Shown: positions 25,965 through 38,809 of the stretch, piece after piece
How the letters are laid out: every line of letters starts with the position of its first letter
Numbering within the stretch: position 1 is the first letter of the stretch
Assembly: GCA_965238275.1 (NCBI GenBank)
Contig: OZ250186.1
Span: 160,001-224,000, forward strand
Reading direction: 5' to 3'
Length of the DNA stretch: 64,000 nt
DNA from: Nitrosopumilus sp.
Lineage (GTDB): Archaea > Thermoproteota > Nitrososphaeria > Nitrososphaerales > Nitrosopumilaceae
The notes under the pieces: model-generated
What the model was told of the DNA's origin: nothing
What the model saw: the letters and a program-made list of their open reading frames with translations, nothing else
Databases searched by the model: none
Position numbers and translations under genes: made by a program

Positions 25965-26066
25965 ATTGAATAAAAATCTACTTCTGTGGAATGGGGGATG
26001 CGGTGTAGGATGGGAGAGATATCCATGTCAGTAAGCTGTGCGGGACAATGATTTAAAGCGTACCGG

Positions 26067-26339
26067 ATGGAAGATAGAGCCATGGGGAATGACAAGTGCG
26101 ACTTTTGCAGGGGGACAGGCAGGAGTACATCCGGCATGTGCGTGTACTGTAACGGTACCGGCGAGTGGAACCAGGCCGCACAGGCATACGTCAAGAACCA
26201 CATATGCCAGTGCATCACCCTGGACAGAAAGTTCTGTCCCGTGTGCAACAAGGCGTGCCACCACGACACCACGCTGAGTCCAAGGCAGAAGATCGATCCC
26301 GGATACGGGGGAATGGCAACGCCAGGAATGAGATCCTAG
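26067..26339 (+). CDS. Small Cys-rich zinc-binding protein
   Basis: CDFCRGTG, CVYCNGTG, HICQC, CPVC. Confidence 0.7.
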   Translation: MEDRAMGNDKCDFCRGTGRSTSGMCVYCNGTGEWNQAAQAYVKNHICQCITLDRKFCPVCNKACHHDTTLSPRQKIDPGYGGMATPGMRS

Positions 26340-26403
26340 GGACAATACAGGGTTTGCAGATCATGGCATGCTCTAAATAGCGCATTTGGCGCATGGTGTC
26401 TTG

Positions 26404-27831
26404 ATGAGAATTGCAGAATCCGTAGAAAAGACAGAGATGCTGTGCGGGTTTGTGCACGAGGGAAGAGACGAGATACTGGGATTTGACAGAATCAAGGTGT
26501 CGCAGGAAGTAAGACAGGCGCTTGCAGACATGAAGGGGAAGATGGGGGCGACATGCGTGGTTTATTCCCCGAATGCCAAACACCAGAGGATACTGCTTGC
26601 AGGGCTTGGCAGGGAGACAACAGAGGATACGGTCAGGTTTGTCTCAGGCAGGATTGCGCAAAAGGCAGCAGGTCTTGGGGTAAAAGAGTTTTCAATAGTT
26701 TCACCGGATGGGGATGCGTCACCGTCCCGCATCATCGAGGGGGTCGTGATGTCGCTGTACAGGTTTGACAGGTTCAAGTCCGAAAAGGGCGATGCGCTGC
26801 CTGATTTTACAGTGGTGGCGCCAAGCGGGGCAGGGCCTGCGGCCAGGACAGCCGGTATCGTTTCAGACGGGGTTGTATTTACAAGGAATGTTGCCAACAT
26901 GCCTCCAAACGAGTGCACCCCTGCAGTGCTGGCCGGCCTGGCAAAAAAGATCTCAAGGAAGAACAAGATTAAGTGCAGGGTGGTTGCAGAAGCCGAACTG
27001 AAGAGGAGGGGGTTTGGCGGAATTACGGCAGTGGGGCAGGGGAGCAGCAACGGCCCCAGGCTTATAATTATGGAGTATGGCGGAGGCGCAAAGGGGGCAA
27101 AGCCGACGGTGCTGGTAGGAAAGGCTGTGACCTTTGATACCGGCGGGATCTCCATCAAGCCAGGCGAGAAGATGGACGAGATGAAGTTTGACAAGTGCGG
27201 GGGGTGCACCGTCCTGGGAATTCTCAAGGCCGCATCAGAGATGGGGCTAGGGGTGAACCTGATCGGGATAGTGCCGGCCGTAGAAAACATGCCCGGGGGA
27301 GACTCGTACAGGCCCGGGGACATAATCAGACTGTACAGCAAAAAGACAGCAGAAATCATGAATACGGACGCAGAAGGAAGGCTGATTCTTGCAGACGCGC
27401 TCTCCTACGGGGAGAAGCATTATCGCCCCAGGGCGATAATTGACTTTGCCACGCTGACAGGCGCGTGCATTGTTGCGCTGGGAAACAACGTCGCAGGAAT
27501 GGTCTCAAATGACAGAGATGAGGCTGCAAGGATAATGGATGCCTCCAGGAGGACATCCGAGGAGGTCTGGGAGCTGCCGCTGAACCAGGACTACATGGAC
27601 ATGATAAAGTCCGATGTGGCTGACATGAAGAACATCGGGATCGGAAGGGCCGCAGGCACCATTACGGCCGCAGCATTCCTGAAAAACGCCATAAATGACA
27701 CGCCGTGGGTCCACATTGATATTGCAGGGGTAGCATGGAAACAGGCAGGCACCAAGGAGAAGCCGTACAATCCAAAGGGCGCGACCGGCTTTGGCGTAAG
27801 GCTGGTTCTTGACTATCTGCAGAACCTCTAG
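26404..27831 (+). CDS. pepA: Leucyl aminopeptidase (M17)
   Basis: GKAVTFDTGG, MKFDKCG, NTDAEGRL, TLTGA, HIDIAG. Confidence 0.93.
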   Translation: MRIAESVEKTEMLCGFVHEGRDEILGFDRIKVSQEVRQALADMKGKMGATCVVYSPNAKHQRILLAGLGRETTEDTVRFVSGRIAQKAAGLGVKEFSIVSPDGDASPSRIIEGVVMSLYRFDRFKSEKGDALPDFTVVAPSGAGPAARTAGIVSDGVVFTRNVANMPPNECTPAVLAGLAKKISRKNKIKCRVVAEAELKRRGFGGITAVGQGSSNGPRLIIMEYGGGAKGAKPTVLVGKAVTFDTGGISIKPGEKMDEMKFDKCGGCTVLGILKAASEMGLGVNLIGIVPAVENMPGGDSYRPGDIIRLYSKKTAEIMNTDAEGRLILADALSYGEKHYRPRAIIDFATLTGACIVALGNNVAGMVSNDRDEAARIMDASRRTSEEVWELPLNQDYMDMIKSDVADMKNIGIGRAAGTITAAAFLKNAINDTPWVHIDIAGVAWKQAGTKEKPYNPKGATGFGVRLVLDYLQNL

Positions 27832-27956
27832 TAGCCCCGGCTGTTCCGGTCAGGCTTTCCGACGTTTGGGTTGCGCCAGCTGTGCTTTTCCATCATGTGA
27901 TTGAGGAATCGGATGTCGTTTTCACACGACTCCCCACATACTGCACATACAGGCAT
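27828..27956 (-). CDS. 42-aa C2H2 zinc-finger protein
   Basis: MPVCAVCGE...FLNHMMEKH. Confidence 0.6.
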   Translation of the reverse strand: MPVCAVCGESCENDIRFLNHMMEKHSWRNPNVGKPDRNSRGY

Positions 27957-28034
27957 GACTGGTGTGCGGGTGCGGAGGAATATTAAGATTGCAGCGGCAT
28001 GGCAATGTCGTGGATTCGATAAACAAAAGGATAC

Positions 28035-29635
28035 GTAACTGTGTAGTTTTTTGATCAAACGTTGAATTCCATGCCTACAAACGTCTGTGTAGTTTTTTTT
28101 GAAACTATTTTTAATCACTTGATCGAGTTTTTCTCTCCATTCCAATTTTTAGATCATCAGTTCCCACGGTTTGCATTATGCCTGATGATAATTCCGAGTC
28201 AAGGATTGCAGAACTGGAGGAAAAAGTGGAGATGATGGCAGGGCAGCTGGCCAAAAAAGACCGTCAGCTGGCCAATCTCGCTGATCTTTACGCTGCCGCC
28301 CTCCGACAGATCCGGGACCTCACGGCAGAGTTGCAGGAAGCAAAGGGCGTCATATCGGCTGCCGTTGCAAGGAGCATCGGCGCAAAACCTGACAAAAAGA
28401 CCGGCGGTGCCAGACGCCGCACAAAGGCCAAGGGCAGGCCAAGCGTCCACAGACGTACCGGCCTCAGGCGTCCTGAAAGAATAGACGCGGAGGAGACGGC
28501 AGATCCCCACACGTGCGACAACTGCGGCAGCTCCGACCTCTCCGAGTGCGTATCCACGTACACAAAGGTCGTAAGGGAGGCTGCCAGGGTGGAACTAGAG
28601 CACATCAAGGTGACAGTAAAGAGAAGGCGCTGCAGGAACTGCAAGAAGACCGTGTCCGGCAGGACCCCGCTGGCACTGCCAAACTCCAGGTACGGGATCA
28701 ACTTTATGATAATGATGGTCATCCTCAGGCTGCACGGCATGTCAGACCTCAGGATATGCCAGATTGTCCTGCTAACGTACTCTGCAAGGATCACCGAATC
28801 TGCCATAAACCGCATGGTGTGCAGGATGGCACGGGAGCTTGGGCCGCTGTACGAGAAGATCAAGGAGGAGGTGAGGCGCTCGCCTGCGATAAATGGGGAC
28901 GAGTCTGTCTGGCGCGTCAACGGCACCAACTATTGGCTGTGGGCGGTGGTAACAAAGTACGCCGTAATCTACGAGGTACACCGCCGCAGGAACTCGAAGG
29001 TTCCAAAAAAGATGCTTGGCAAGGACTATTCGGGATGCGTGACGTCTGACTCGTGGGGAGCGTGGAACGTCATAGGAACCATGCACCAAAAGTGCCACCT
29101 GCATTACGCCCGGGACATCAAGGACACCCTGAGATACAAAAATCCCGGCCAGGACTACCGGCGGCACGCAAGGACGCTGCGCAGCATACTGTGGGACTCG
29201 CACGTCGACGGTGCCATTCCGGGAGGAGCAGACGCGCTTGCCACAAAGAAGAGGCTGGACCGTCGCATCGCGTCCCTGATAGGCAGGCTCGAGAAGGACC
29301 GCGACTGCAAGCACTGCAACAGGATGCGCAAGAGGCTGGTGCGGGAAAGGGATCACCTGTTTGCGTTTCTGGAGACAGACGATGTCGAATACCACAACAA
29401 CCGGGCAGAGCGGGCCATCAGGCCGTACGTCATTCTTCGCAAGAACAGCAACGGGAGCAGGTCAAAGAAGGGCGCAGACGCGATTGCCGTGCTGATGAGC
29501 ATCAAGCAGACATGCAAGGCAAGGGGAGATGATTTTTGCACGGTCCTGCGCGAGAATCTGGTTCCATGTTAAAAAAAATACATAGTTTTTTGTAGGCATG
29601 GAATTCACCATTTGATCAAAAAACTACACAGTTAC
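28035..29635 (+). mobile_element. IS66-family element (single-ORF type), intact
   Basis: ~47-bp TIRs starting GTAACTGTGTAGTTTTTTGATCAAA; 8-bp TSD AAGGATAC at 28027-28034 and 29636-29643. Confidence 0.92.
28178..29572 (+). CDS. IS66 transposase
   Basis: Coiled coil, CxxC..CxxC, NGDES, TSD, QKCHLHYAR, NNRAERAIR. Confidence 0.92.
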   Translation: MPDDNSESRIAELEEKVEMMAGQLAKKDRQLANLADLYAAALRQIRDLTAELQEAKGVISAAVARSIGAKPDKKTGGARRRTKAKGRPSVHRRTGLRRPERIDAEETADPHTCDNCGSSDLSECVSTYTKVVREAARVELEHIKVTVKRRRCRNCKKTVSGRTPLALPNSRYGINFMIMMVILRLHGMSDLRICQIVLLTYSARITESAINRMVCRMARELGPLYEKIKEEVRRSPAINGDESVWRVNGTNYWLWAVVTKYAVIYEVHRRRNSKVPKKMLGKDYSGCVTSDSWGAWNVIGTMHQKCHLHYARDIKDTLRYKNPGQDYRRHARTLRSILWDSHVDGAIPGGADALATKKRLDRRIASLIGRLEKDRDCKHCNRMRKRLVRERDHLFAFLETDDVEYHNNRAERAIRPYVILRKNSNGSRSKKGADAIAVLMSIKQTCKARGDDFCTVLRENLVPC

Positions 29636-30106
29636 AAGGATACAAGAACTTGCAAAAGAGTATCTTGTGGAATGGCAAGTGGTGGGAGATTATTTGCGAA
29701 AAATAAATAAAAATGAGAAAAAATTAATAAAATACGCAGACGAGGCACGGCTGCGCCTGGGTTCGGATGATTACGAGGACGGACAAAAAATGGTTTCAGA
29801 CATATTGAAACATATTGAAAAATTAAAAATCAAATTTTACATACACCGGAAAGAATCTGAACAAATTAGAATTAATATTGTTAAATTAAATCCCTACAAA
29901 AAGATGCGACCATGTCGTACACATTCCAGCTCAGCGTAAAGATCTATTGAATGGGATCGGTAAATCCTGCCGTTGGAGCGAACTTTTGGTCGTCAGTATA
30001 GGTCACTCATTTAACGCCCCATGACCGGCACCCGGTAATGTGGCAGAGCCTTGACGCGGGTTCTGTGTGATCTTAGAAGGTTACAAAAATCGTCCATATC
30101 CAACTA

Positions 30107-31361
30107 TACCAAAGATGAAAAATTGATGTGATTGTAAAATATTTTAACTCCATGTGAAATTATGCTTATTTCACGTAGCATAGTCAATGAAGATCAAGAC
30201 GATGTTGAAAAGATACGCCGCTGAGACAGACTGCGATACCAAGGACCGCATGATGCTGATCATCAGAGTCAAACGTGACGGGATAACCATGAGGGATTCT
30301 GCAAAATCCCTGGGAAAGTCAGCCTCGTGGGGCTACAAGTGGCACGAGCGCTACCTGGAAGTCGGATTTGACAGGCTGGGAAACATGCCGCGTTCCGGCA
30401 GGCCGACCAAGGCGAGCAAGGCAGACATGAAGAAGATCAGAAAGGCCGCATGCAGGAAACCTGTCTGGACGGGCATGGAGATGCAGCAATACATCCAACA
30501 GAAGACCGGAGTAAGGTACGAACTCGGATATGTGCGCCAGATACTGCGCGGGTGGGGCTATTCCCAGAAGGTTCCCGTAGGAAAACATGCAAGAAGGGCA
30601 CCTGACGAGGAGATCAGGAAATTCCAAAAAGAGATGCCAGAGCTTATAAAAAAAAGAACAGTGAAGGAACAGTCGTAGCGATACAGGACGAGTCCATAGT
30701 AATCTCCGATGCGCGGCCGCGAAGACGCGGCTACACCAGGAAGGGAATACGGGCGTTTTTCACGTACACCGGCTCACACTCCAAGACGATAATCCATGGA
30801 CTGATCACCACGGACGGCAGGGGCATGTTCCGGCAGTACGACGCGTTTACCAAGGACACCTTTGAGGACTTTCTAAGGCAGGCGATGTACAGGTTCAAGA
30901 AGATCTGCCTGATCATGGACAAGGCCTCCCAGCACAGGGCATCAAACATACGCAAACTGCTTGATGGCACAGACGGCCTGGAGATAGTCTTCCTGCCAAC
31001 TGCAACCCCGGACCTGAGCGCCATAGAGACGTACTGGAGGGATCTCAAACGGGCAGTGCTTGACGTGCCGTACACCAGCCTGAGCATGCTCCGCGAGGCG
31101 ATCACCAGGTACACGAGGTACAAAAAACCGAATCTGGTCGTTGAAAACTTTCTGTACAGGGCCATCTAGAACGACATCAAACCGCACCGGACCCACGCCG
31201 CCTAGCGTGTGCCATGCACGGCGCACCAGAGCATGCAATGTCTAATGTTCGGGGCGTCTTTTCTCGTCATTTGGGAATTCAACGCACCTCGTAATTTCCA
31301 GAGACGGCTGTTGCATCAAAAATTTATGAGCGATTTTGATATGAATTTTTCATTGCTGGTA
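30107..31361 (+). mobile_element. IS630-family element, copy 2
   Basis: TIRs TACCAAAGATGAAAAATTGAT / TACCAGCAATGAAAAATTCAT; TA at 30105-30106 and 31362-31363. Confidence 0.88.
30187..31169 (+). CDS. IS630 transposase (-1 frameshift at A-run ~30648-30655)
   Basis: Paralog of 9065-10047 with the same junction. Confidence 0.85.
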
Positions 31362-31400
31362 TATGCCATTACTATCTGCGTTAAAGGTCGGTGGTAAAAT

Positions 31401-33616
31401 GTAAGAGGTCGCCTTTACGAAGCGATTCCGTGCCTGATTTGCCCCGATTAATTACCAACTGAGCTACGTTTTCGACCATAAATACCCGATTAATTACACG
31501 TTATCAGCGTGGTCCGCAGGCAGGACAGTTTTCAAATCAAGGCTCACCTGCCGGATCTTTTGTGCCGCATTTCTCGGCAGACGCTACGTGTCCAAAAGCT
31601 TTATGGATCATGCCTTCCAGTGTTGTGGCATGGTGCCTGTAATCGACTTGGAAAAGATTGACTGGAACTCCGTAACCGACACAAAGTCCATCTTCGAATC
31701 AGTCCTTGCCATGCTCAAATCCCGGGACGAGGAGAGCGTGGCGTTGAGGAAAAACATCGAGCAGTTGAAGGAGGAGGCAGAGGCCTTCTCAGGGGAGCGC
31801 GCGATGCTGACGGAGATGGGCACCAGAATCGAACAGCTGGAGGAGGAGAACGCGCAAAAGGACTCCGAGATAGAGAATCTGGGAACAGATGTGGAGAATT
31901 TGAGTGCAGAAGTAGAGAAGCTGAGGGCAGAAAACGCCGCCCTCCTGCAGGGATGCGACGTCTCGCAGGCAGTCATGGACAGGATAGCCCGCCTGGAACG
32001 GCAGGCAGCCGAGCATGCCTCGCAGCTAAGGGAGGCGCGCGCGGCCAACTCGGCGCTGGCAGCCGAGAACCTGGGCATCAAAAGCCGCCGCTCCAAGAGG
32101 CGGCTCCGGGAGTCGCCCGGGCCTGCGCCGGACCCGTTCAGGAAGGTCGTCTGCCTGCGCACCGGCCGGAACCCTCCCCCGATATCTGAAAAGAGGCTGG
32201 TCGACCTGCACTCCTGCCCGCACGGCCACGCCCTCTCGACGGGGCCCACCGAGGTGACCTTCCGGGTAGTCGAGGAGATCATCGACGGGAAACTGACTGC
32301 CATCCAATATACAGTCGTCCGCAGGTACTGCAGGGAATGCGGCAGGCAGTTTGCCCCCGAGATCCCCGGGGTCGTCCCAGGGGGGCGGTTCGGTGCCAGC
32401 CTGACGTGCCTGGAGACTACCATGAGGATGCACGGCATCCCCTACGGCATCATCTGCAGTCTGATCAACATAATCCACCACGCAGGCCTTGCCAAGTCGA
32501 CAGTCATCAGCCACGTGGACGCCGTTACGGGATCCCTCCACCCCCTCTACGAGGAGATGCTCGGGGAGATATTCTTCTCAGAGCATGTCTTTGGCGACGA
32601 GACGAGCTGGAAGATAGCCGGGATACTGTACTGGCTGTGGGTGCTGGTAGGTGACGACTCGACTGTCTTTCACGTGGACAAGAGCCGGGGAGGCGACGTC
32701 CTGGTGTCGCTGCTTGGAGGGTACGGCGGCCACGTCACCTCCGACTCCCACGCCCCGTGGAACCGCATCGGCAAGACCCACCAAAAGTGCCACTACCACT
32801 ACCTCCGCGAGATCCTCCGCACCCTGACCATGAAATCCCCCGGACCCGAATTCAAAAAGTTTGCCAAGGCCCTGAAGGGGATAATCATCGATTCATGGTA
32901 CCCGGACAAGGGGCTTGACCCGGACGACGACGGGGCCGCGCGAAACCTCAAGGTGCGCAACCTCCAGGCCCGGGTGAGGCGCCTGATCTCTGGCAGCTAC
33001 ACAGACGCCCACTGCAAGAGGTTTGTCAAGCGGCTGCGGCGCGAGATCACCCACCTGTTCCCATTCATCCGCCTCAACACAAAGTGCCATAACAACGATG
33101 CCGAGCGTCCCCTGCGGCCCAGCGTCGCATCCCGGAAGGTCTCAGGCGGCAGCAAGAGCCTTGCCGGCGCATACAACCACGCCGTCCTGGCCACCGTCCG
33201 CGAGACGTGCAGGAGGCGCGGAGTCAACCCGCACGACTTTTTGGTCGACTACATGCACGGCCTCGTCGAAAAAATTCCGGCAGCAGCAGCAACAGTCGCA
33301 TAAATCCTGCAAAATCCACTCCCTGACTGCCCCACGCAGACCCGTCGCGCCGGCAGTCTGGCGCATGTCAGGCTGCCGTACCGGCTGTCACCCGATCCCG
33401 GCACAACTCAGCGCCCCGGCCGCGCCAAAAAAGGCCACTTCGCAAACCCGATCACCGGATCGGCCAAAACATAACTCGGCCGGACCCTCCTCCCCGCCCG
33501 GAAAAAACCCAGAATAATGCCAATTAAATGGGCATTTACAGCCGAAAACGTAGCTCGGTTGGTAATTAATCGGGGCAAATCAGGCATGGAATCGCTTCGC
33601 AAAGGCGACCTCTTAC
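31401..33616 (+). mobile_element. Second IS66-family element with ~95-bp TIRs, no TSD
   Basis: GTAAGAGGTCGCCTTT..CGAAGCGATTCC..TGCCTGATTTGCCCCGATTAATTACCAAC inverted at both ends. Confidence 0.88.
31588..33303 (+). CDS. IS66 transposase with long N-terminal coiled coil
   Basis: GDETSW, TSD, QKCHYHYLR, NNDAERPLR. Confidence 0.9.
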   Translation: MSKSFMDHAFQCCGMVPVIDLEKIDWNSVTDTKSIFESVLAMLKSRDEESVALRKNIEQLKEEAEAFSGERAMLTEMGTRIEQLEEENAQKDSEIENLGTDVENLSAEVEKLRAENAALLQGCDVSQAVMDRIARLERQAAEHASQLREARAANSALAAENLGIKSRRSKRRLRESPGPAPDPFRKVVCLRTGRNPPPISEKRLVDLHSCPHGHALSTGPTEVTFRVVEEIIDGKLTAIQYTVVRRYCRECGRQFAPEIPGVVPGGRFGASLTCLETTMRMHGIPYGIICSLINIIHHAGLAKSTVISHVDAVTGSLHPLYEEMLGEIFFSEHVFGDETSWKIAGILYWLWVLVGDDSTVFHVDKSRGGDVLVSLLGGYGGHVTSDSHAPWNRIGKTHQKCHYHYLREILRTLTMKSPGPEFKKFAKALKGIIIDSWYPDKGLDPDDDGAARNLKVRNLQARVRRLISGSYTDAHCKRFVKRLRREITHLFPFIRLNTKCHNNDAERPLRPSVASRKVSGGSKSLAGAYNHAVLATVRETCRRRGVNPHDFLVDYMHGLVEKIPAAAATVA

Positions 33617-34028
33617 AAAGAAAGGCGGAATTTCAAGACGCGTGGAACACGCACATACAAGCCAGAGATGCGCTGCCTGCGGGGTAGTGGACAAGAAATC
33701 CAGGAACGGCGAATCATTTGTCTGCGTCTCATGCGGATGGTGCCACCATGCCGACAAGAACGCGGCAAAAAACATTTTGGATAATGACTGTCTCCATACG
33801 GAGGAGACTGGCGGCCAAGCCCACGGGAATCGTGGAGGCACCATTGCAGGTGTCGAGGTCGTCACAAGGCGCGAGGATCACGGATCGGATGGTTCTGGAA
33901 TGAACAATTCGACAGGTCGGCTTGGATCCGACAACGACGACAATATTGGAAGGTCTGACAGAGCGCCGGAAAGAGCATCAGGACATGCTACAGAGAGATC
34001 TGTTTGCACGAATTTTCGCTCGCCGCTA
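33617..34028 (+). pseudogene. 3' fragment of a second copy of the TIR-bounded tnpB element
   Basis: Highly similar to 37653-38108; zinc finger + HADKNAAKNI; ends CGCCGCTA followed by TA. Confidence 0.85.
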
Positions 34029-34568
34029 TAGCAGGAATTTCATGTGACGTATGATGATTGCAGGTTGGTGTGCAGGAAAACAGGACATGCAAGAACATTT
34101 GCCAAGAGGTTTGTGGTATAAAAAAAACGGGCACATGGTGGAAGGCACAGCTCAGATCAGGCAAGATCCAAGGCATGCGGAATCTGGACAGATCATCCCG
34201 GGGCACAAAATACGGTGCGGCTGTAACAGAGAATTTGGCAGGATGGCTCTGTAACTGCTGCAGCACATGGTCATGCAGAATCCACGCGACAAGGAACACA
34301 GGAAAAGTTCAGAGGGATAAAATGATGATGACGGTGCAGAAAAATCCAAAACCCATGTTTTTCGGAACGTGGTATTTTCCCATTCTGCAGTATTTGGGAA
34401 GACAAAACATGCACATTCCATTTTGAGCGGTTCCATGGAATGCGCGTTAAAAGGCATGCCCAGAGATGCAGCGGGAGGCACCTAGGGATCCAGAGGGCAG
34501 GATGGGTTACAGTATATGGCATTTTCCTGCAGGCATACCATCACGCACAGAACCCAGATTATAATGAA

Positions 34569-34684
34569 ATGCCAGCACTGTTGCTTCCCAAGGGCTCTCG
34601 CATCTTAGTAGCACAACAGCGACATCAGGTTTGACTTCCAAGTTCGGAATGGGATTGGGTCGCACCCTGACGCTATGGCCGGCT
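34569..34684 (-). rRNA. rrf: 5S rRNA
   Basis: Reverse complement GCCGGCCATAGCG...CCCATTCCGAAC..GAAGTCAAAC...GCGAGAGCCCTTGGGAA...GTGCTGGC. Confidence 0.92.
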
Positions 34685-34789
34685 TGACTATCAACGCCAA
34701 ACCCTCATCTATTAACGTAACGCCTGACCACGTGCAGGGAACAGTCGTCTCAAAGTAGGTATAAACAAAGGTGCCATCAATACCACACC

Positions 34790-36598
34790 ATGACCCACCG
34801 CGTTGCAGTGCTTGACAAGGAGCTGTGCATGCCAAGAAAGTGCGGCCTGGAGTGCATAAAGTACTGCCCGGTCAACAAGTCAGGCGCAGACTGCATAGCA
34901 CTTGACGAGGAGACAAAGAAGGCCAGAATAGACGAGGACATCTGCAACGGCTGTGGCATATGCGTCAAGGTCTGCCCGTTTGATGCAATCACCATAGTAA
35001 ACCTGGCAACAGAGCTTGCAACAGACAAGATCCACCAGTACGGCCCCAACTCGTTCAGGCTTTACAGGCTTCCTGCACCAAAGAAGGGCCAGGTCGTCGG
35101 ACTCTTGGGAAGAAACGGGATGGGAAAGAGCACAGTCATCAACATACTCTCCGGCAGCATAAAGCCGAACCTTGGAAGGTACGAGGATCCCCCGGAATGG
35201 GACGAGATTCTGAAATATTACAGCGGAACCGAATTAAAACACCACTTTGAGATGATCATGCAAAAGCAGATCCGCGCCTCAATGAAGCCCCAGCAGGTAC
35301 ACAGCATAGCGCAGGCCTTTGGCGGGACCGGAAGGGAGCTGCTGGACAGGTACGACCAGAGGGGCGTGTCGCGTGAGATGGTAAGGGAGCTGGGCCTGCA
35401 AAACTCCATGGAGCAGCCGTTGGCTGAGCTCAGTGGGGGGGAGCTTCAGAGGCTGGCAGTGGCAGCAGCAGCCTCCCGGGATGCCGAGTTTTACTTTTTT
35501 GACGAGCCGTCCTCGTACAACGACGTATTCCAGAGGACGTCGGTGGCCCGCGTGATACAGGGGCTGGCAGACATTGGAAGGAGCGTGATGGTAGTCGAGC
35601 ACGACCTTACCCTGCTTGATTTCCTGAGCGACCAGATAGAGGTGCTGTACGGGGAGCCTGCAGCATACGGGATAGTCTCAAGCGTTCTTTCAACCAAGGT
35701 CGGAATCAACGTGTTCCTTGACGGGTACCTGCCGGGAGAAAACGTCAGGTTCAGGGACAAAAAGTTCTCCTTTGATGCATCTTCCTCATCGACTGACATA
35801 TTCCAGGAGGGAAGCGACACAGTCTCGTACCCCGGCATCACCAAGAGTTATCCCTCGTTTTCAGTGGCAGTAGAGCCGGGACGGGTGCGAAAGGGCGAGG
35901 TCCTAGGGATAATGGGCGCAAACGCCCTTGGCAAGACGACCATGATGAAGATGATTGCAGGTAATGTGGAGCCGGATACTGGCAGCATCAAACAGAACGT
36001 AAAGATAGCATACAAGCCGCAGTACCTGCAGGGCGACATTCCAGCAGAGGTGGTTACCGTGCTTGAGAGGGCAAACGGCGCCTCCATAGAGGGTAGTGCC
36101 GAAGAGGAGCAGATTCTGGAACCGCTAAAGATCAAAAAACTCTACAACAAGCAGGTAAGATCCCTGTCCGGAGGAGAGCTGCAAAAGGTTGCAGTGGCAT
36201 CGTGCCTGTTGCAGAAGGTGGACCTGTATGCGCTTGATGAGCCGTCTGCATTCCTGGACGTGGAGGACAGGATCGCAGTGGCAAAGTTCCTGCAAAAGTT
36301 CGTCCGCTCGTTTGGCAAGTCGGCAATAGTGATAGACCATGACCTGCAGCTGATGGACCTAATCTCGGACAGCATGGTGATATTTGAGGGGGAGTCTGGT
36401 GTGGCAGGCCATGCCACCTCCCCCATGCCAAAGGCTGCGGCCATGAACAGGTTTCTCAAATCCCTGGAGATCTCCTTTAGAAGGGACGAGAGAAGCCTCA
36501 GGCCCCGCGTAAACAAGGCTGGAAGCAGGCTGGACAAGAGCCAAAAGTCATCAGGCGACTTTTACTATAGTGAAAAGCGAAAGTCCGTGCAATTTTGA
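34790..36598 (+). CDS. Ribosome recycling ATPase ABCE1/RLI (C-terminus altered by element insertion)
   Basis: N-terminal Fe-S cysteines, two ABC domains (GRNGMGKS, LSGGELQ x2), RPRVNK. Confidence 0.95.
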   Translation: MTHRVAVLDKELCMPRKCGLECIKYCPVNKSGADCIALDEETKKARIDEDICNGCGICVKVCPFDAITIVNLATELATDKIHQYGPNSFRLYRLPAPKKGQVVGLLGRNGMGKSTVINILSGSIKPNLGRYEDPPEWDEILKYYSGTELKHHFEMIMQKQIRASMKPQQVHSIAQAFGGTGRELLDRYDQRGVSREMVRELGLQNSMEQPLAELSGGELQRLAVAAAASRDAEFYFFDEPSSYNDVFQRTSVARVIQGLADIGRSVMVVEHDLTLLDFLSDQIEVLYGEPAAYGIVSSVLSTKVGINVFLDGYLPGENVRFRDKKFSFDASSSSTDIFQEGSDTVSYPGITKSYPSFSVAVEPGRVRKGEVLGIMGANALGKTTMMKMIAGNVEPDTGSIKQNVKIAYKPQYLQGDIPAEVVTVLERANGASIEGSAEEEQILEPLKIKKLYNKQVRSLSGGELQKVAVASCLLQKVDLYALDEPSAFLDVEDRIAVAKFLQKFVRSFGKSAIVIDHDLQLMDLISDSMVIFEGESGVAGHATSPMPKAAAMNRFLKSLEISFRRDERSLRPRVNKAGSRLDKSQKSSGDFYYSEKRKSVQF

Positions 36599-36633
36599 GA
36601 TCCTTTTTAAGAAAATAAATCCCAACTACAGGT

Positions 36634-37995
36634 ATGATTGTCAGCAAAATCATCAAGATAACACAATCTCGGGAACTATCACGCAAGATCGTGAAGTGTT
36701 CCCGGGAAACTGACATCGTTTACGACATGACAATCATGATGAAACTTGCACATCCCAGAATCACGCAGTTTGACATCAACAACCTGATAACGAGATGGCG
36801 CAGGGAATTCAGCCTGACCAGCAGCGTCTGCATGCATGAGGCCGCCTCAAAACATGCTTTCCAGGCGGCAGTCAAATTCGGCAAGGCAAACCGGCTCAAG
36901 CACAACAAGCGCATCTGGCGCAAGAAACAGATCAAGATGGGGAAAAAGAAAACGTACAGGCACAATCGGTGGACCGAGCCGTCCGGCCTGATGAGGCGCG
37001 GCAGGAAAACAACCAGGCTGCGCTCGCTGAATTCACGCGGAAAGCCAAAACTGCGAGACAGCGGAGCCGTATTTCTGCCCGGACTCGGGGAAGTAAGGCC
37101 GCGCACGAGGGTTCCAGAAGGTAGACTGGTGTCATTCCAGATGGTTGATATCACAGGCAAAATCACGCGCAAGACCAAGGATGGTGATCGCGAATTCAAA
37201 CTGCATTTGCAGACAGAAGTCCCAGATACCGAACCCGCTACAGGCGGATGCAAGGCGGGGCTGGATCTTGGAGTCAGGCACCTTGCGGCAGTCGCAGACG
37301 AGGACGGGAACGAAAAACTGTACAATGTCCCGGGAGGCTGCAAGAGGCATGACGGCGACAGGATTGATCATCTGAAATCGCTCAGATCAAGATGCCAGAC
37401 AGGCTCCAGAAGATGGAAAGAGATCGGACGCAAGATAGCGCATGAATTGAAAAAGACATCAAACAGGCAAAAACACAACGAGATAGGCATTGCCCGTCGG
37501 ATAACAAAAGGACTGTCCGTATTGTTCTTGGAAGACCTGGATTTGACCAAGATGAGGAGATCCAACGGAGCAGCCTCAAAGACTGGGCTGAACCGCGAGA
37601 TGGCCTATTCCAGAATGGGCGAGTTCAGGATCCAGTTTGAATGGCAGATGAAAAAGAAAGGTGGAATTACAAAACGCGTGGAATCCGCACATACAAGCCA
37701 GAGATGCGCTGCCTGCCAAATAGTGGATAAAAAGTCCAGAAACGGCGAATCATTTGTCTGCACCTCATGCGGATGGTGCCACCATGCCGACAAGAACGCG
37801 GCAAAAAATATTTTTGATAGTGACTGTCTCCATACGGAGGAGACTGGCGGTCAAGCCCACGTGAATCGTGGAGGCACCATACGAGAAGATCAGGGAGGAG
37901 GTAAGAAAATCGTGGAGGCACCATTGCAGGTGTCGAGGTCGTCACAAGGCGCGAGGATCACGGATCGGGTAGTTCTGGAATGGACGACTCGATAG
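36634..37995 (+). CDS. tnpB: TnpB-family RNA-guided endonuclease with divergent N-terminus
   Basis: GLDLG, FLEDL, CAAC..CTSC, HADKNAAKNI; catalytic D-E-D intact. Confidence 0.85.
   Translation: MIVSKIIKITQSRELSRKIVKCSRETDIVYDMTIMMKLAHPRITQFDINNLITRWRREFSLTSSVCMHEAASKHAFQAAVKFGKANRLKHNKRIWRKKQIKMGKKKTYRHNRWTEPSGLMRRGRKTTRLRSLNSRGKPKLRDSGAVFLPGLGEVRPRTRVPEGRLVSFQMVDITGKITRKTKDGDREFKLHLQTEVPDTEPATGGCKAGLDLGVRHLAAVADEDGNEKLYNVPGGCKRHDGDRIDHLKSLRSRCQTGSRRWKEIGRKIAHELKKTSNRQKHNEIGIARRITKGLSVLFLEDLDLTKMRRSNGAASKTGLNREMAYSRMGEFRIQFEWQMKKKGGITKRVESAHTSQRCAACQIVDKKSRNGESFVCTSCGWCHHADKNAAKNIFDSDCLHTEETGGQAHVNRGGTIREDQGGGKKIVEAPLQVSRSSQGARITDRVVLEWTTR
37864..37924 (+). repeat. 17-bp direct repeat flanking a 27-nt IS66-like spacer
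   Basis: AATCGTGGAGGCACCAT-ACGAGAAGATCAGGGAGGAGGTAAGAA-AATCGTGGAGGCACCAT; only one repeat copy in the paralog near 33828. Confidence 0.85.
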
Positions 37996-38209
37996 GTCGG
38001 CTTGGACCCGACAGCGACGACAATATTGGAAGGTCTGACAGAGCGCCGGAAAGAGCACCAGGACATGCTACAGAGAAATCTGTTTGTACGAACTTTTGCT
38101 CGCCGCTATACAAGTGATTTACGGTGCCTCTTGTGCGGAACGGAAATCAGGACGCAATTGATCATGACCATGCCCGGAACAGGCCGCATCAGGGCAATAG
38201 CAATACCTG

Positions 38210-38809
38210 TTGAAGCATTCGGCCACAAGAGGCTCATGCGATGAACATCAAGAGGGTCATTTTTGGCCGTTATGCAATTCTGCAAATGGGTCTACTGGCA
38301 GCATCACAGATATAGAACATGCACGCAAGTGTGAGAAATTGGGAAACAACGAGTATACGCCTGACGTAAAAAAGGGCATGGAGCTGGCCGAAAGGTGGGA
38401 ATATCGCAAGGCGGCCAGGTGTTTTGAGAGGGAGATAAGGCGTAATCCTGAAAATTATACTGCGTATATAAACGGCGTTCTGATATTGTTTCGGAGTGGG
38501 CAGTACAACAAGGCACTCAGATATGCCAACAGGTCAATAGAGATAGCCCCGGCCGAATCCATGGCACATCTCAACAAGGGAGCGCTGCTCAGCGAGGTTG
38601 ATGACCATGATGGCGCAATCAGGTGTTTTGACGAGGCAATAAGACTGGATACATACGGATGGGCCGGGTATTTTAACAGGGGCATGTCGCTGATGGAACT
38701 GGGAAGGGATAAAGAGGCAGTAGAGTGTTTCGATAAGGTTCTAGAGTTGGATCCTGGCAATGAAATTGCATTCGCCAGCAGGGCAGAGCTATTGGAGAAA
38801 AATGGATAG
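38210..38809 (+). CDS. TPR protein (true start probably ~38339; likely truncated)
   Basis: ~4 TPRs (AIRCFDEAIRLD, AVECFDKVLELDP); TPR-like text continues after TAG. Confidence 0.75.
   Translation: MKHSATRGSCDEHQEGHFWPLCNSANGSTGSITDIEHARKCEKLGNNEYTPDVKKGMELAERWEYRKAARCFEREIRRNPENYTAYINGVLILFRSGQYNKALRYANRSIEIAPAESMAHLNKGALLSEVDDHDGAIRCFDEAIRLDTYGWAGYFNRGMSLMELGRDKEAVECFDKVLELDPGNEIAFASRAELLEKNG

Follow-up and report, generated by a model that had tools for sequence, protein, structure and literature searches.

TnpB/omegaRNA (OMEGA) elements of the IS200/IS605 superfamily are multicopy elements that combine an OrfB_IS605 protein, TnpB, with its zinc-ribbon and RuvC regions, and a structured omegaRNA; the latter runs from within the 3' end of the gene to the right end of the element. 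The guides of TnpB sit outside the transposon right end, as described in PMC10278001. In a proposal for the origin of type V arrays, given in PMC10691335, such arrays emerge by serial duplication of omegaRNA segments. PMC8421209 describes templated insertions in which synthesis switches template at microhomology and afterwards goes back to the original one. The locus discussed here lies in a 64,000-nt stretch of DNA (the window), and the original prediction had read it as a nascent CRISPR-like unit, with a DNA-capture repair scar as the alternative. We think that it is probably a one-off, non-functional templated insertion of 44 nt in one copy of a multicopy TnpB insertion sequence.

This insertion sequence, referred to as copy 2, occupies 36565..38110 on the plus strand (1546 bp including the 44-nt insertion); its ends were taken from 21 copies that were aligned together with the flanking sequences. 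The terminal inverted repeats are imperfect, with the left end CTATAGTG.. and the right end ..CGCTATA. The element lies within the 3' end of the ABCE1 gene, and orthologs of this gene were used to infer the empty site. The trinucleotide CTA precedes the left end in 17 of the 21 copies and is also found at the inferred empty site, from which the TAM of the element is inferred. In the genome, the element is represented by 22 alignments of more than 800 nt and by 24 3' ends, and the flanks vary between the copies, indicating a mobile element with defined ends. A second member of the family in the window, copy 1, is a 3' remnant at 33617..34030 (plus strand). The genome has no match to Y1 TnpA (PF01797); the element is thus TnpB-only and presumably of the IS1341-like type. 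It resembles the OMEGA elements in its OrfB_IS605 and zinc-ribbon/RuvC TnpB, in its multicopy nature and in the structured omegaRNA that overlaps the gene 3' end up to the right end. Unlike them, it resides in a genome without Y1 TnpA, carries imperfect terminal inverted repeats and has a reading frame that stays open through the whole omegaRNA.

The tnpB gene of copy 2 (36634..37995, plus strand) encodes 453 amino acids, compared with 479-493 in intact paralogs, and the protein matches the Pfam families OrfB_IS605 (1.2e-13) and Cas12f1-like_TNB (3.8e-15). Its residues 169-395 align to the ISDra2 TnpB structures 8bf8 and 8h1j (7.2e-9), and the motifs DLG, LED, CxxC..CxxC and HADKN are present and are paired with the corresponding ISDra2 motifs in the best structure alignment. 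The RuvC and zinc-finger region is intact, and the C-terminal tail is frameshifted. The insert starts at about codon 411, beyond residue 395, the last one aligned to the solved structures, which bears out its placement after RuvC III in the original prediction. Owing to the 44 nt, the last ~70 codons give way to an out-of-frame tail of 43 amino acids. That the insert only changes the tail, as had been claimed, is right for the protein, but the paralog ORFs show that most intact copies retain this ~70-codon tail as an open frame as far as the final base of the element.

The insertion itself is simple in structure. The 17-mer AATCGTGGAGGCACCAT occurs twice in copy 2, at 37864-37880 and at 37908-37924, and encloses 27 new nucleotides at 37881-37907 (all on the plus strand), so that the 44-nt insertion seen in the assembly at 37864-37924 consists of a 17-nt duplication and a 27-nt filler. 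Copy 1 possesses a single 17-mer at 33828-33844, exactly as first described, and the offsets between copy 1 and copy 2, 4036 for family D1 and 4080 for family D2, differ by these 44 nt. At 18 other loci of the genome the 17-mer is likewise single and exact. In the donor sequence, the 27 nt are preceded by T and followed by A, and a duplication of 15-17 bp with an insert of 27-29 nt therefore describes the event just as well. In formal terms this is a minimal case of direct repeats around a unique spacer (two 17-nt repeats and one 27-nt insert), and a repeat of 17 nt is shorter than usual CRISPR repeats, which have ~23-55 bp.

As the insertion is known from the assembly, read chimerism or faulty polishing in this repeat-rich region has to be considered as its source, and we regard such an artefact as very unlikely. 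Logan contigs of four runs are fragmented in the TnpB repeat, and in favor of an artefact none of the public contigs listed spans the insert junctions. In addition, run X1 has a contig in which a tail lacking the insert is connected to the unique flank of the copy 2 locus; this contig can, however, be a graph chimera that runs via a 43-nt stretch common to all copies. Joints that skip the 44 nt are found in contigs of X1, X2 and X4, and insert-less paralogs can produce such joints. The highest share of sampled words in any public run is 0.49, by which no run is shown to be the source strain; among RNA runs, three have any share, with 0.05-0.08 each. Furthermore, an exact 17-nt duplication around a perfect copy of a distant 29-nt sequence would be an unusual assembler error, and the genome is a single closed contig.

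The origin of the 27 nt could be traced within the genome. Together with T37880 and A37908, the insert is identical in 29 of 29 positions to three IS66-family transposase genes, at genome positions 1122135, 349011 and 1988354, and it lies in the sense orientation with respect to them. The donor ORF (L050:62-1570) belongs to the Pfam family DDE_Tnp_IS66. In a first-order Markov genome of the same size 7e-12 exact copies of the 29-mer are expected, and three other perfect copies were observed; of 100 simulated 64-kb windows none contained a match to the 26-mer with up to two mismatches. The window has its own IS66-family element of a lineage A at 28035..29635 (plus strand, 464-aa transposase at 28178-29572), and its gene matches the insert in 22 of 23 positions at 28850-28872, as had been noted, and in 24 of 26 when the comparison is extended through 28875. 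This imperfect match identifies it as a relative of the donor and not as the donor, and the expectation that a sister IS66 element was the true donor proved correct, since the perfect match covers the 27 nt plus one base on either side at the three loci elsewhere in the genome. The nearest perfect donor is at least 151 kb away, and an IS66 copy exists at a distance of 9 kb; in total, IS66-family DNA makes up 3.7% of the genome. At the donors, the microhomology amounts to 1 nt per junction, a T on the left and an A on the right; with one mismatch allowed, the right junction has 4 matching positions out of 5.

A further IS66-family element of a lineage B at 31400..33617 (plus strand, 96-nt inverted repeats, 571-aa DDE_Tnp_IS66 ORF at 31588-33303) abuts the copy 1 remnant and truncates it on its 5' side. 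The idea that an IS66-family element destroyed the other TnpB copy thus holds, but the lineage is a different one, as the lineage B transposase shares only 36% identity with the donor lineage. An excision footprint of an IS66 element was rejected as a source of the insertion, because the 27 nt come from within the transposase gene and do not represent IS ends, and because the duplication has 15-17 bp. A capture of IS66 mRNA by reverse transcription was also dismissed, as the genome gave no match to RVT_1.

The place of the insert within the omegaRNA does not suit a role as a guide. A scaffold region is predicted at 37814..38110 (plus strand), where it overlaps the tnpB 3' end and stops at the element right end. 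Its consensus fold is based on 18 sequences from two species and contains 59 pairs with 99.1% of the cells paired; 10 pairs are changed on both sides, compared with 0-4 when the partners are slid, in which case 34-48% of the cells are paired, and these values carry the caveat that one and the same alignment served to derive the structure and to score it. Single-sequence folds with and without the insert are no better than those of shuffled sequences (z = -0.72 and -1.00), and the structure used here is the comparative one only. A search for Rfam omegaRNA families at 33500-38300 gave none, with 5S rRNA as the only match. In the alignment, the insert falls in columns 54-70 of the 262-column scaffold, inside the ORF and ~200 nt before the right end. 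It is contained in the domain that is closed by helix 3 and adjoins helix 5 (GGCACC-AUUGCA-GGUGUC, 37917..37934, plus strand), which is intact downstream of the insert, has 3 of its 6 pairs changed on both sides and also appears in the single-sequence fold. The scaffold of copy 2 has thereby gained 44 nt in an internal multiloop, and both breakpoints are situated in the loops of two adjacent predicted hairpins: the first 17-mer starts within the loop of a small hairpin and reaches 2 nt into that of its neighbor, and the second 17-mer runs on into the intact downstream scaffold. The predicted guide comprises the first 16 nt of the flank past the right end (38111..38126, plus strand), a position assigned following PMC10278001, and this 16-mer is unique in the genome, with itself as the only match. 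A cut by TnpB itself as the source of a break was rejected as well, because no match to any of the 24 predicted 16-nt guides, with two or fewer mismatches, lies close to the insertion site.

According to the headline of the original prediction, a segment of the omegaRNA serves as proto-repeat and the 27-mer as a spacer that retargets TnpB to IS66-family elements. This reading is attractive in that the topology is repeat-spacer-repeat, the would-be spacer perfectly matches a competing transposon family, the TnpB catalytic region is intact, and type V arrays have been proposed to derive from serial duplication of omegaRNA segments, as stated in PMC10691335. We nevertheless consider it extremely unlikely. 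The repeat stems from the 5' part of the scaffold, ~200 nt before the guide position, which would put the scaffold on the 3' side of the "spacer", the reverse of the order described for TnpB and Cas12 in PMC10278001 and PMC10691335, and the 17-mer is unlike the guide-proximal end of the scaffold. The 5' flank of the IS66 donor reads ..CC(A/G)CTG before T-ACGAG, so that a protospacer there would be preceded by CTG or CTGT, unlike the CTA at the left junctions of the element, its putative TAM. Finally, the insert frameshifts the protein tail.

The distribution of the insert also speaks against a nascent guide acquisition. It is carried by only one of the 24 element copies that retain a 3' end. 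Among 40 related genomes searched, the TnpB family is present in one (G017), with ~70% identity and without the insert, and none of the seven copies there has any, so that different spacers at this position occur neither in other copies here nor in this relative. The exact junction string had no match in collections of metagenome and genome contigs, which may omit the record of the window itself, and a search for the repeat-gap-repeat pattern yielded 23 metagenome matches, all of which are unrelated tandem repeats, with none of the 23 similar to the TnpB element.

A repeat-spacer-repeat topology is also what the chemistry of a Cas1-type integrase produces. In such a scenario, a Cas1-Cas2 complex or a casposase that was transient or has since been lost would have carried out an ectopic integration by staggered attacks ~15-17 bp apart. 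Casposon duplications of 14-15 bp are of similar size and would fit, but a 27-29-nt insert is short in comparison with typical prespacers. We judge this scenario to be exceedingly improbable, as the genome, which is 99.92% complete, contains no match to the Pfam profiles of Cas1 (PF01867) and Cas2 (PF09827) under conditions where positive controls were detected, and as there was a single event. CRISPR arrays are also missing from the genome, and all 14 of the periodic repeat clusters examined turned out to be true tandem repeats.

The capture of a free DNA fragment is a possible but rather doubtful origin of the insertion. Here, opposite-strand nicks 15-17 nt apart would have created a staggered break, the overhangs would have been filled in, and a free 27-29-bp IS66 fragment would have been ligated, leaving a functionless scar. 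Several observations agree with this: an exact 15-17-bp duplication is the product of staggered-break fill-in, both breakpoints lie in predicted hairpin loops as possible nick sites, and the 0-1 nt of homology at the junctions suits ligation rather than annealing. Moreover, both foreign donors that are traceable in the TnpB family (2 of 2, counted after the fact) are IS66-family genes, which would be expected if free transposon DNA, for example debris from transposition intermediates, formed the pool. On the other hand, we know of no nuclease that makes 17-nt staggers at the copy 2 site. With positive controls detected, the genome showed no match to the Pfam families Ku and RVT_1; Ku end joining is dismissed on this ground, and the lack of a Ku homolog also speaks against fragment capture. 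The insertions in a further copy, c1560390, which have no flanking duplication and show 3-4-nt microhomology, fit polymerase switching.

This copy is one of the places in the genome where events of a similar kind were found. Compared with a sibling, c1560390 is identical in 1453 of 1635 alignment columns, and the differences consist mainly of ~10 clustered small insertions. One of these contains a 29-nt piece that is identical in 32 of 32 positions to another IS66-family gene, and another contains a 24-nt piece that is identical in 28 of 28 positions to a sequence ~150 nt downstream in the TnpB family. Further events of duplication plus filler were found at 874102 (49 nt copied) and at 2144543 (29 nt copied) by a genome self-comparison that was based on megablast and parsed HSP pairs and is blind to events in families of less than ~85% identity. 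Because other short templated insertions exist in the genome, some of them in another TnpB copy, a template-switch or break-repair scar is the best reading of the insertion.

For the template-switch route, we infer the following sequence of steps. In the course of replication or break repair, a 3' DNA end, extended as far as ..GGCACCAT, would leave its template, and the loose end would prime on a distant IS66-family transposase gene and copy 27-29 nt of it. Synthesis would then resume on the original template 15-17 nt upstream of the exit point, which would place the foreign piece within a short duplication. A stalling of the synthesis is plausible at the two adjacent hairpin loops of the omegaRNA-coding DNA. 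Besides the like events in c1560390, at 874102 and at 2144543, this reading is supported by the 29/29 donors at three IS66-family genes with 1 nt of microhomology at each junction, by the uniqueness of the insert, by the absence of an integrase route (no matches to Cas1, Cas2, Y1 TnpA, RVT_1 and Ku, and no arrays in the genome), and by the location of the insert inside the scaffold, with the guide placed outside the right end in PMC10278001. The alternative of a repair scar in the original prediction has thus gained support. Some points do not fit as easily. A microhomology of 1 nt is often expected by chance, and the human set in PMC8421209 averaged 3.7 bp. Classical template switches favor nearby templates, whereas the donor is at least 151 kb off in spite of the IS66 copy at 9 kb. 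That both traceable foreign donors are IS66-family genes, although such DNA constitutes a small part of the genome, hints at a non-random donor pool that simple template switching does not explain.

On this evidence, one transposon copy carries a mutational scar of an ordinary sort, and taking it for a CRISPR system in the making would be wrong. It may nevertheless be of interest to researchers of archaeal break repair, as this Nitrosopumilaceae-like archaeon lacks Ku, reverse transcriptase and CRISPR and displays short templated insertions and a heavily scrambled sibling copy. The scar also illustrates that copying errors without Cas1-Cas2 can yield a repeat-spacer-repeat structure in an omegaRNA gene from the DNA of a rival transposon, and such products are the raw material assumed by the omegaRNA-duplication proposal for type V arrays, as given in PMC10691335. 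One could go further and speculate about an origin of repeat-spacer units that is free of Cas1-Cas2, in which error-prone copying duplicates a piece of the omegaRNA and traps a fragment of a rival transposon between the copies, and in which RNAs processed from such units would now and then redirect TnpB toward IS66-family elements or act as a sponge for it. We hold this to be highly unlikely; if it were true, the origin of both traceable foreign inserts in IS66-family genes, with 3.7% of the genome, would mean that the DNA of rival mobile elements is sampled preferentially.

Among the known systems, Cas1-Cas2 spacer integration, including its ectopic form, is similar in that the target is duplicated around a short foreign insert from a mobile element; the differences are that there is no cas1/cas2, array or leader here, that the duplication has 15-17 bp, and that the event is single. 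The de novo type V arrays proposed in PMC10691335 share with this locus the duplication of an omegaRNA-coding segment within a tnpB locus, but Cas12 arrays as described there are found downstream of the effector gene and mimic the guide end of the omegaRNA, whereas the duplicated piece here is internal, located in the 5' part of the scaffold and in the ORF, and not repeated. The template switching known as MMBIR or FoSTeS has been described mainly in yeast and human cells, and no archaeal example was among the papers listed in a literature search. It differs from the event in copy 2 with respect to the 1-nt microhomology and to the donor at a distance of at least 151 kb. In common, however, are a short insert that is identical to a sequence of the same genome and a return that leaves a small duplication, as described in PMC8421209, and, with c1560390, the occurrence of isolated events next to complex clustered ones in the same genome.

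The 17-nt segment AATCGTGGAGGCACCAT is read directly twice in the TnpB element at 36565-38110 (copy 2), at 37864-37880 and again at 37908-37924, and the two occurrences enclose 27 nt (37881-37907). In the paralogous stretch this 17-mer occurs once (33828-33844), and a repeat search gave homology offsets of 4036 and 4080 on either side of the insert, which corresponds to an insertion of 44 nt. The repeat-insert-repeat arrangement at 37864-37924 described in the original prediction is thus present, and it lies downstream of RuvC-III as claimed: the insert begins near codon 411 of tnpB, and solved ISDra2 TnpB structures align to residues 169-395 of the protein. Since the donor sequence carries a T before and an A after the 27 nt, the junctions possess 1 nt of microhomology each, and the duplication can be counted as 15-17 bp and the insert as 27-29 nt.

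The host of the insertion is a TnpB-only insertion sequence of 1546 bp with imperfect terminal inverted repeats, and its tnpB ORF (36634-37995, 453 aa) matches OrfB_IS605 and Cas12f1-like_TNB. A Y1 TnpA was not found in the source genome, which is a single contig of 2,216,668 bp with 99.92% completeness. The TnpB family makes up 1.6% of this genome; 24 copies possess a 3' end, 22 alignments exceed 800 nt, and the copies are 78-92% identical to copy 2. Most intact copies have a tnpB ORF of 479-493 aa that meets no stop in the omegaRNA region and runs up to the final base of the element (..FRSPL; window 36634-38110 and paralogs, e.g. G000:C1:316708-318223, in coordinates of the source genome); its stop codon is finished by the base that follows in the flank (TA+G/A), or the frame continues into the flank. 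Where copies or species differ by indels in this tnpB 3'/omegaRNA region, the indel length is mostly divisible by three. The 44 nt cause a +2 shift, so that the ancestral tail of about 70 codons is replaced by an out-of-frame tail of 43 aa. Three TnpB copies carry an inserted 93-nt miniature element with terminal inverted repeats, two at an identical position (G000:C1:615470-615561, 643118-643209, 1821627-1821716), and inserts of similar size (89-93 nt) are located at 504038, 1601141 and 1738240.

The window encodes an archaeal ABCE1/RLI gene, and copy 2 is inserted in its final codons (36540-36598 and 38111-38117). Orthologs end with ..GDFYYK-stop, while the protein here ends with ..GDFYYSEKRKSVQF, using 33 nt of the left end of the element; the inferred empty site joins ..TTTTACTA to CAAGTGA. 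Of copy 1 (33617-34030), only a 3' remnant is left, which adjoins the end of a 2.2-kb IS66-family element (31400-33617), and a 5S rRNA gene (34567-34686, minus strand; Rfam RF00001, 80 bits) is situated between this remnant and the ABCE1 gene. The stretch 26000-34100 is rich in mobile elements: IS66 lineage A occupies 28035-29635 and IS66 lineage B 31400-33617, an ORF between them (30187-30678) has HTH domains of transposase type (HTH_32/HTH_33/LZ_Tnp_IS481), and the TnpB remnant completes the set. Three IS66-family lineages together account for 3.7% of the genome.

As claimed, the insert matches the window's IS66-family transposase gene at 22/23 nt, and the match extends to 24/26. A 26-mer with up to two mismatches was found in 0 of 100 simulated 64-kb windows, and 7e-12 exact copies of the 29-mer are expected in a Markov-1 genome of the same size; the IS66 match is not due to chance. 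The window copy, 9 kb upstream, was rejected as donor for its imperfect match (22/23). Instead, the 27 nt with one additional base on each side match 29/29 at three genome loci (1122135-1122163, 349011-348983 and 1988354-1988326), which bears out the anticipated sister IS66 donor, and 28/29 at 1707681. These loci lie in a sub-lineage of the 1.6-kb IS66 family; the sub-lineage is 84-89% identical to the window copy and encodes a 502-aa DDE_Tnp_IS66 protein. The closest perfect locus is about 151 kb distant. It had also been suggested that the insert could aim TnpB at the IS family that destroyed the other copy. Copy 1 was indeed truncated by an IS66-family element, but this belongs to a different lineage than the donor, its transposase being only 36% identical, nor does it match the insert, so that this "revenge" story is not borne out in its particulars.

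Of the features by which a CRISPR array or proto-array was judged here, the insert shows the repeat-spacer-repeat topology alone, and this as a single unit. Only 1 of the 24 family copies, copy 2 itself, carries an insert, and the 17-mer is single and exact at 18 other loci; different spacers, as a nascent guide acquisition had led one to look for, were thus not seen in the other copies. Profile searches of the genome with positive controls gave no match to Cas1 or Cas2, which makes an integrase-mediated integration extremely unlikely. CRISPR arrays were not found either, as all 14 larger periodic clusters were true tandem repeats (TRF). Among 40 related genomes searched, one (G017) contains the family, and none of its seven copies has the insert. 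The exact 50-nt junction string had no match in metagenome_contigs and genome_contigs, and a search for the repeat-gap-repeat pattern returned 23 matches, none of them similar to the element.

The bases 5' of the conserved left end CTATAG vary across 21 copies, CTA preceding the element in 17 of these. The window regains the ABCE1 ending ..FYYK-stop of the orthologs only when CTA is counted as part of the flank, which places the element directly after CTA. Our best guess from these insertion sites is therefore that CTA is the TAM of this family; in front of the IS66 protospacer stands ..CTG(T), which does not match this putative TAM. None of the 24 predicted guides is aimed at the insertion site when up to two mismatches are allowed. 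The predicted 16-nt guide of another copy, c951041 (G000:C1:951025-951040), is identical to a stretch inside the omegaRNA of its own family and has 26 sites with up to two mismatches, including 38029-38044 in the window, all of which follow T(A/G)TTG instead of CTA. The copy may be nested or recombined, or its guide may target the family itself and be restrained by the TAM.

The last ~250 nt of 11 distinct genome copies and seven G017 copies were aligned and folded by RNAalifold, resulting in a consensus omegaRNA scaffold of 11 helices. On this alignment, from which the structure itself was derived, 99.1% of cells are paired, with 10 pairs changed on both sides, compared with 34-48% and 0-4 such pairs when the partners are slid by 1-3 columns. 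The 17-mer (columns 54-70) starts in the loop of helix 4, a small hairpin, takes in the 5' arm of helix 5 (GGCACC/GGUGUC, three of six pairs covarying) and stops 2 nt into the helix 5 loop. This puts the insert within the scaffold, in its 5' part, with the right end ~200 nt further downstream. The two hairpins belong to a domain that the invariant helix 3 closes, and they remain complete after the insertion in the predicted fold. The 17-mer does not resemble the guide-proximal scaffold end. In TnpB systems as described in PMC10278001, the scaffold 3' end is at the right end and the flank outside the transposon serves as guide; the 27-mer, with ~200 nt of scaffold still to follow, is on the wrong side for a guide role according to this model. 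We consider a functional guide acquisition to be extremely improbable, and a Cas1-free birth of a repeat-spacer unit, the boldest of the readings, hardly less so.

We think that the insertion is very probably a non-functional scar, in line with the DNA-capture alternative of the original prediction, which is supported by the exact genomic donors and by similar short templated insertions elsewhere in the genome. Its structure carries the hallmark of templated insertions that arise when a polymerase switches template, as described in PMC8421209, and a template switch probably copied a piece of an IS66-family gene into copy 2. A break capture, in which a filled-in staggered break is joined to a captured fragment, would yield the same topology and is a less likely route to the scar. 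Neither a reverse transcriptase nor Ku was found in the genome. The TnpB copy c1560390 (G000:C1:1558756-1560390, minus) shares 1453 of 1635 alignment columns with its sibling at G000:C1:908690-910205, and the differences are mainly clustered small insertions, about 10, of 6-29 nt. One of 29 nt is 32/32 identical to the third IS66-family lineage, including 3 nt of microhomology, one of 24 nt is 28/28 identical to tnpB-family sequence ~150 nt downstream, and for some others a divergent tnpB-like locus is the probable source; the copy gives the impression of an accident of replication or repair with several template switches. Together with two further duplication-plus-filler events at 874102 and 2144543, it indicates that templated insertions do occur in this genome. 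Both foreign donors in the TnpB family (2/2; n=2, noticed post hoc) are IS66-family genes, although IS66-family DNA constitutes 3.7% of the genome, a preference that simple template switching does not account for.

An assembly artefact appears very unlikely. Among the contigs shown from four public sequencing runs (Logan, fragmented in the repeat; no public run contained more than 0.49 of the sampled words), none spans the insert junctions, and a 374-nt contig of run X1 joins an insert-less, consensus-like tail with 12 differences to the unique right flank of the copy-2 locus (window 37764-38181). However, this contig can either stem from an insert-less strain or be a de Bruijn graph chimera via a 43-nt stretch common to all copies.

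Compared with known systems, the insertion shares a duplicated omegaRNA segment with the origin of type V arrays proposed in PMC10691335, but differs from that proposal as the insert is in the wrong RNA part, is unrepeated and is not accompanied by acquisition machinery. The copy-2 element itself is of the TnpB/omegaRNA (OMEGA) type.
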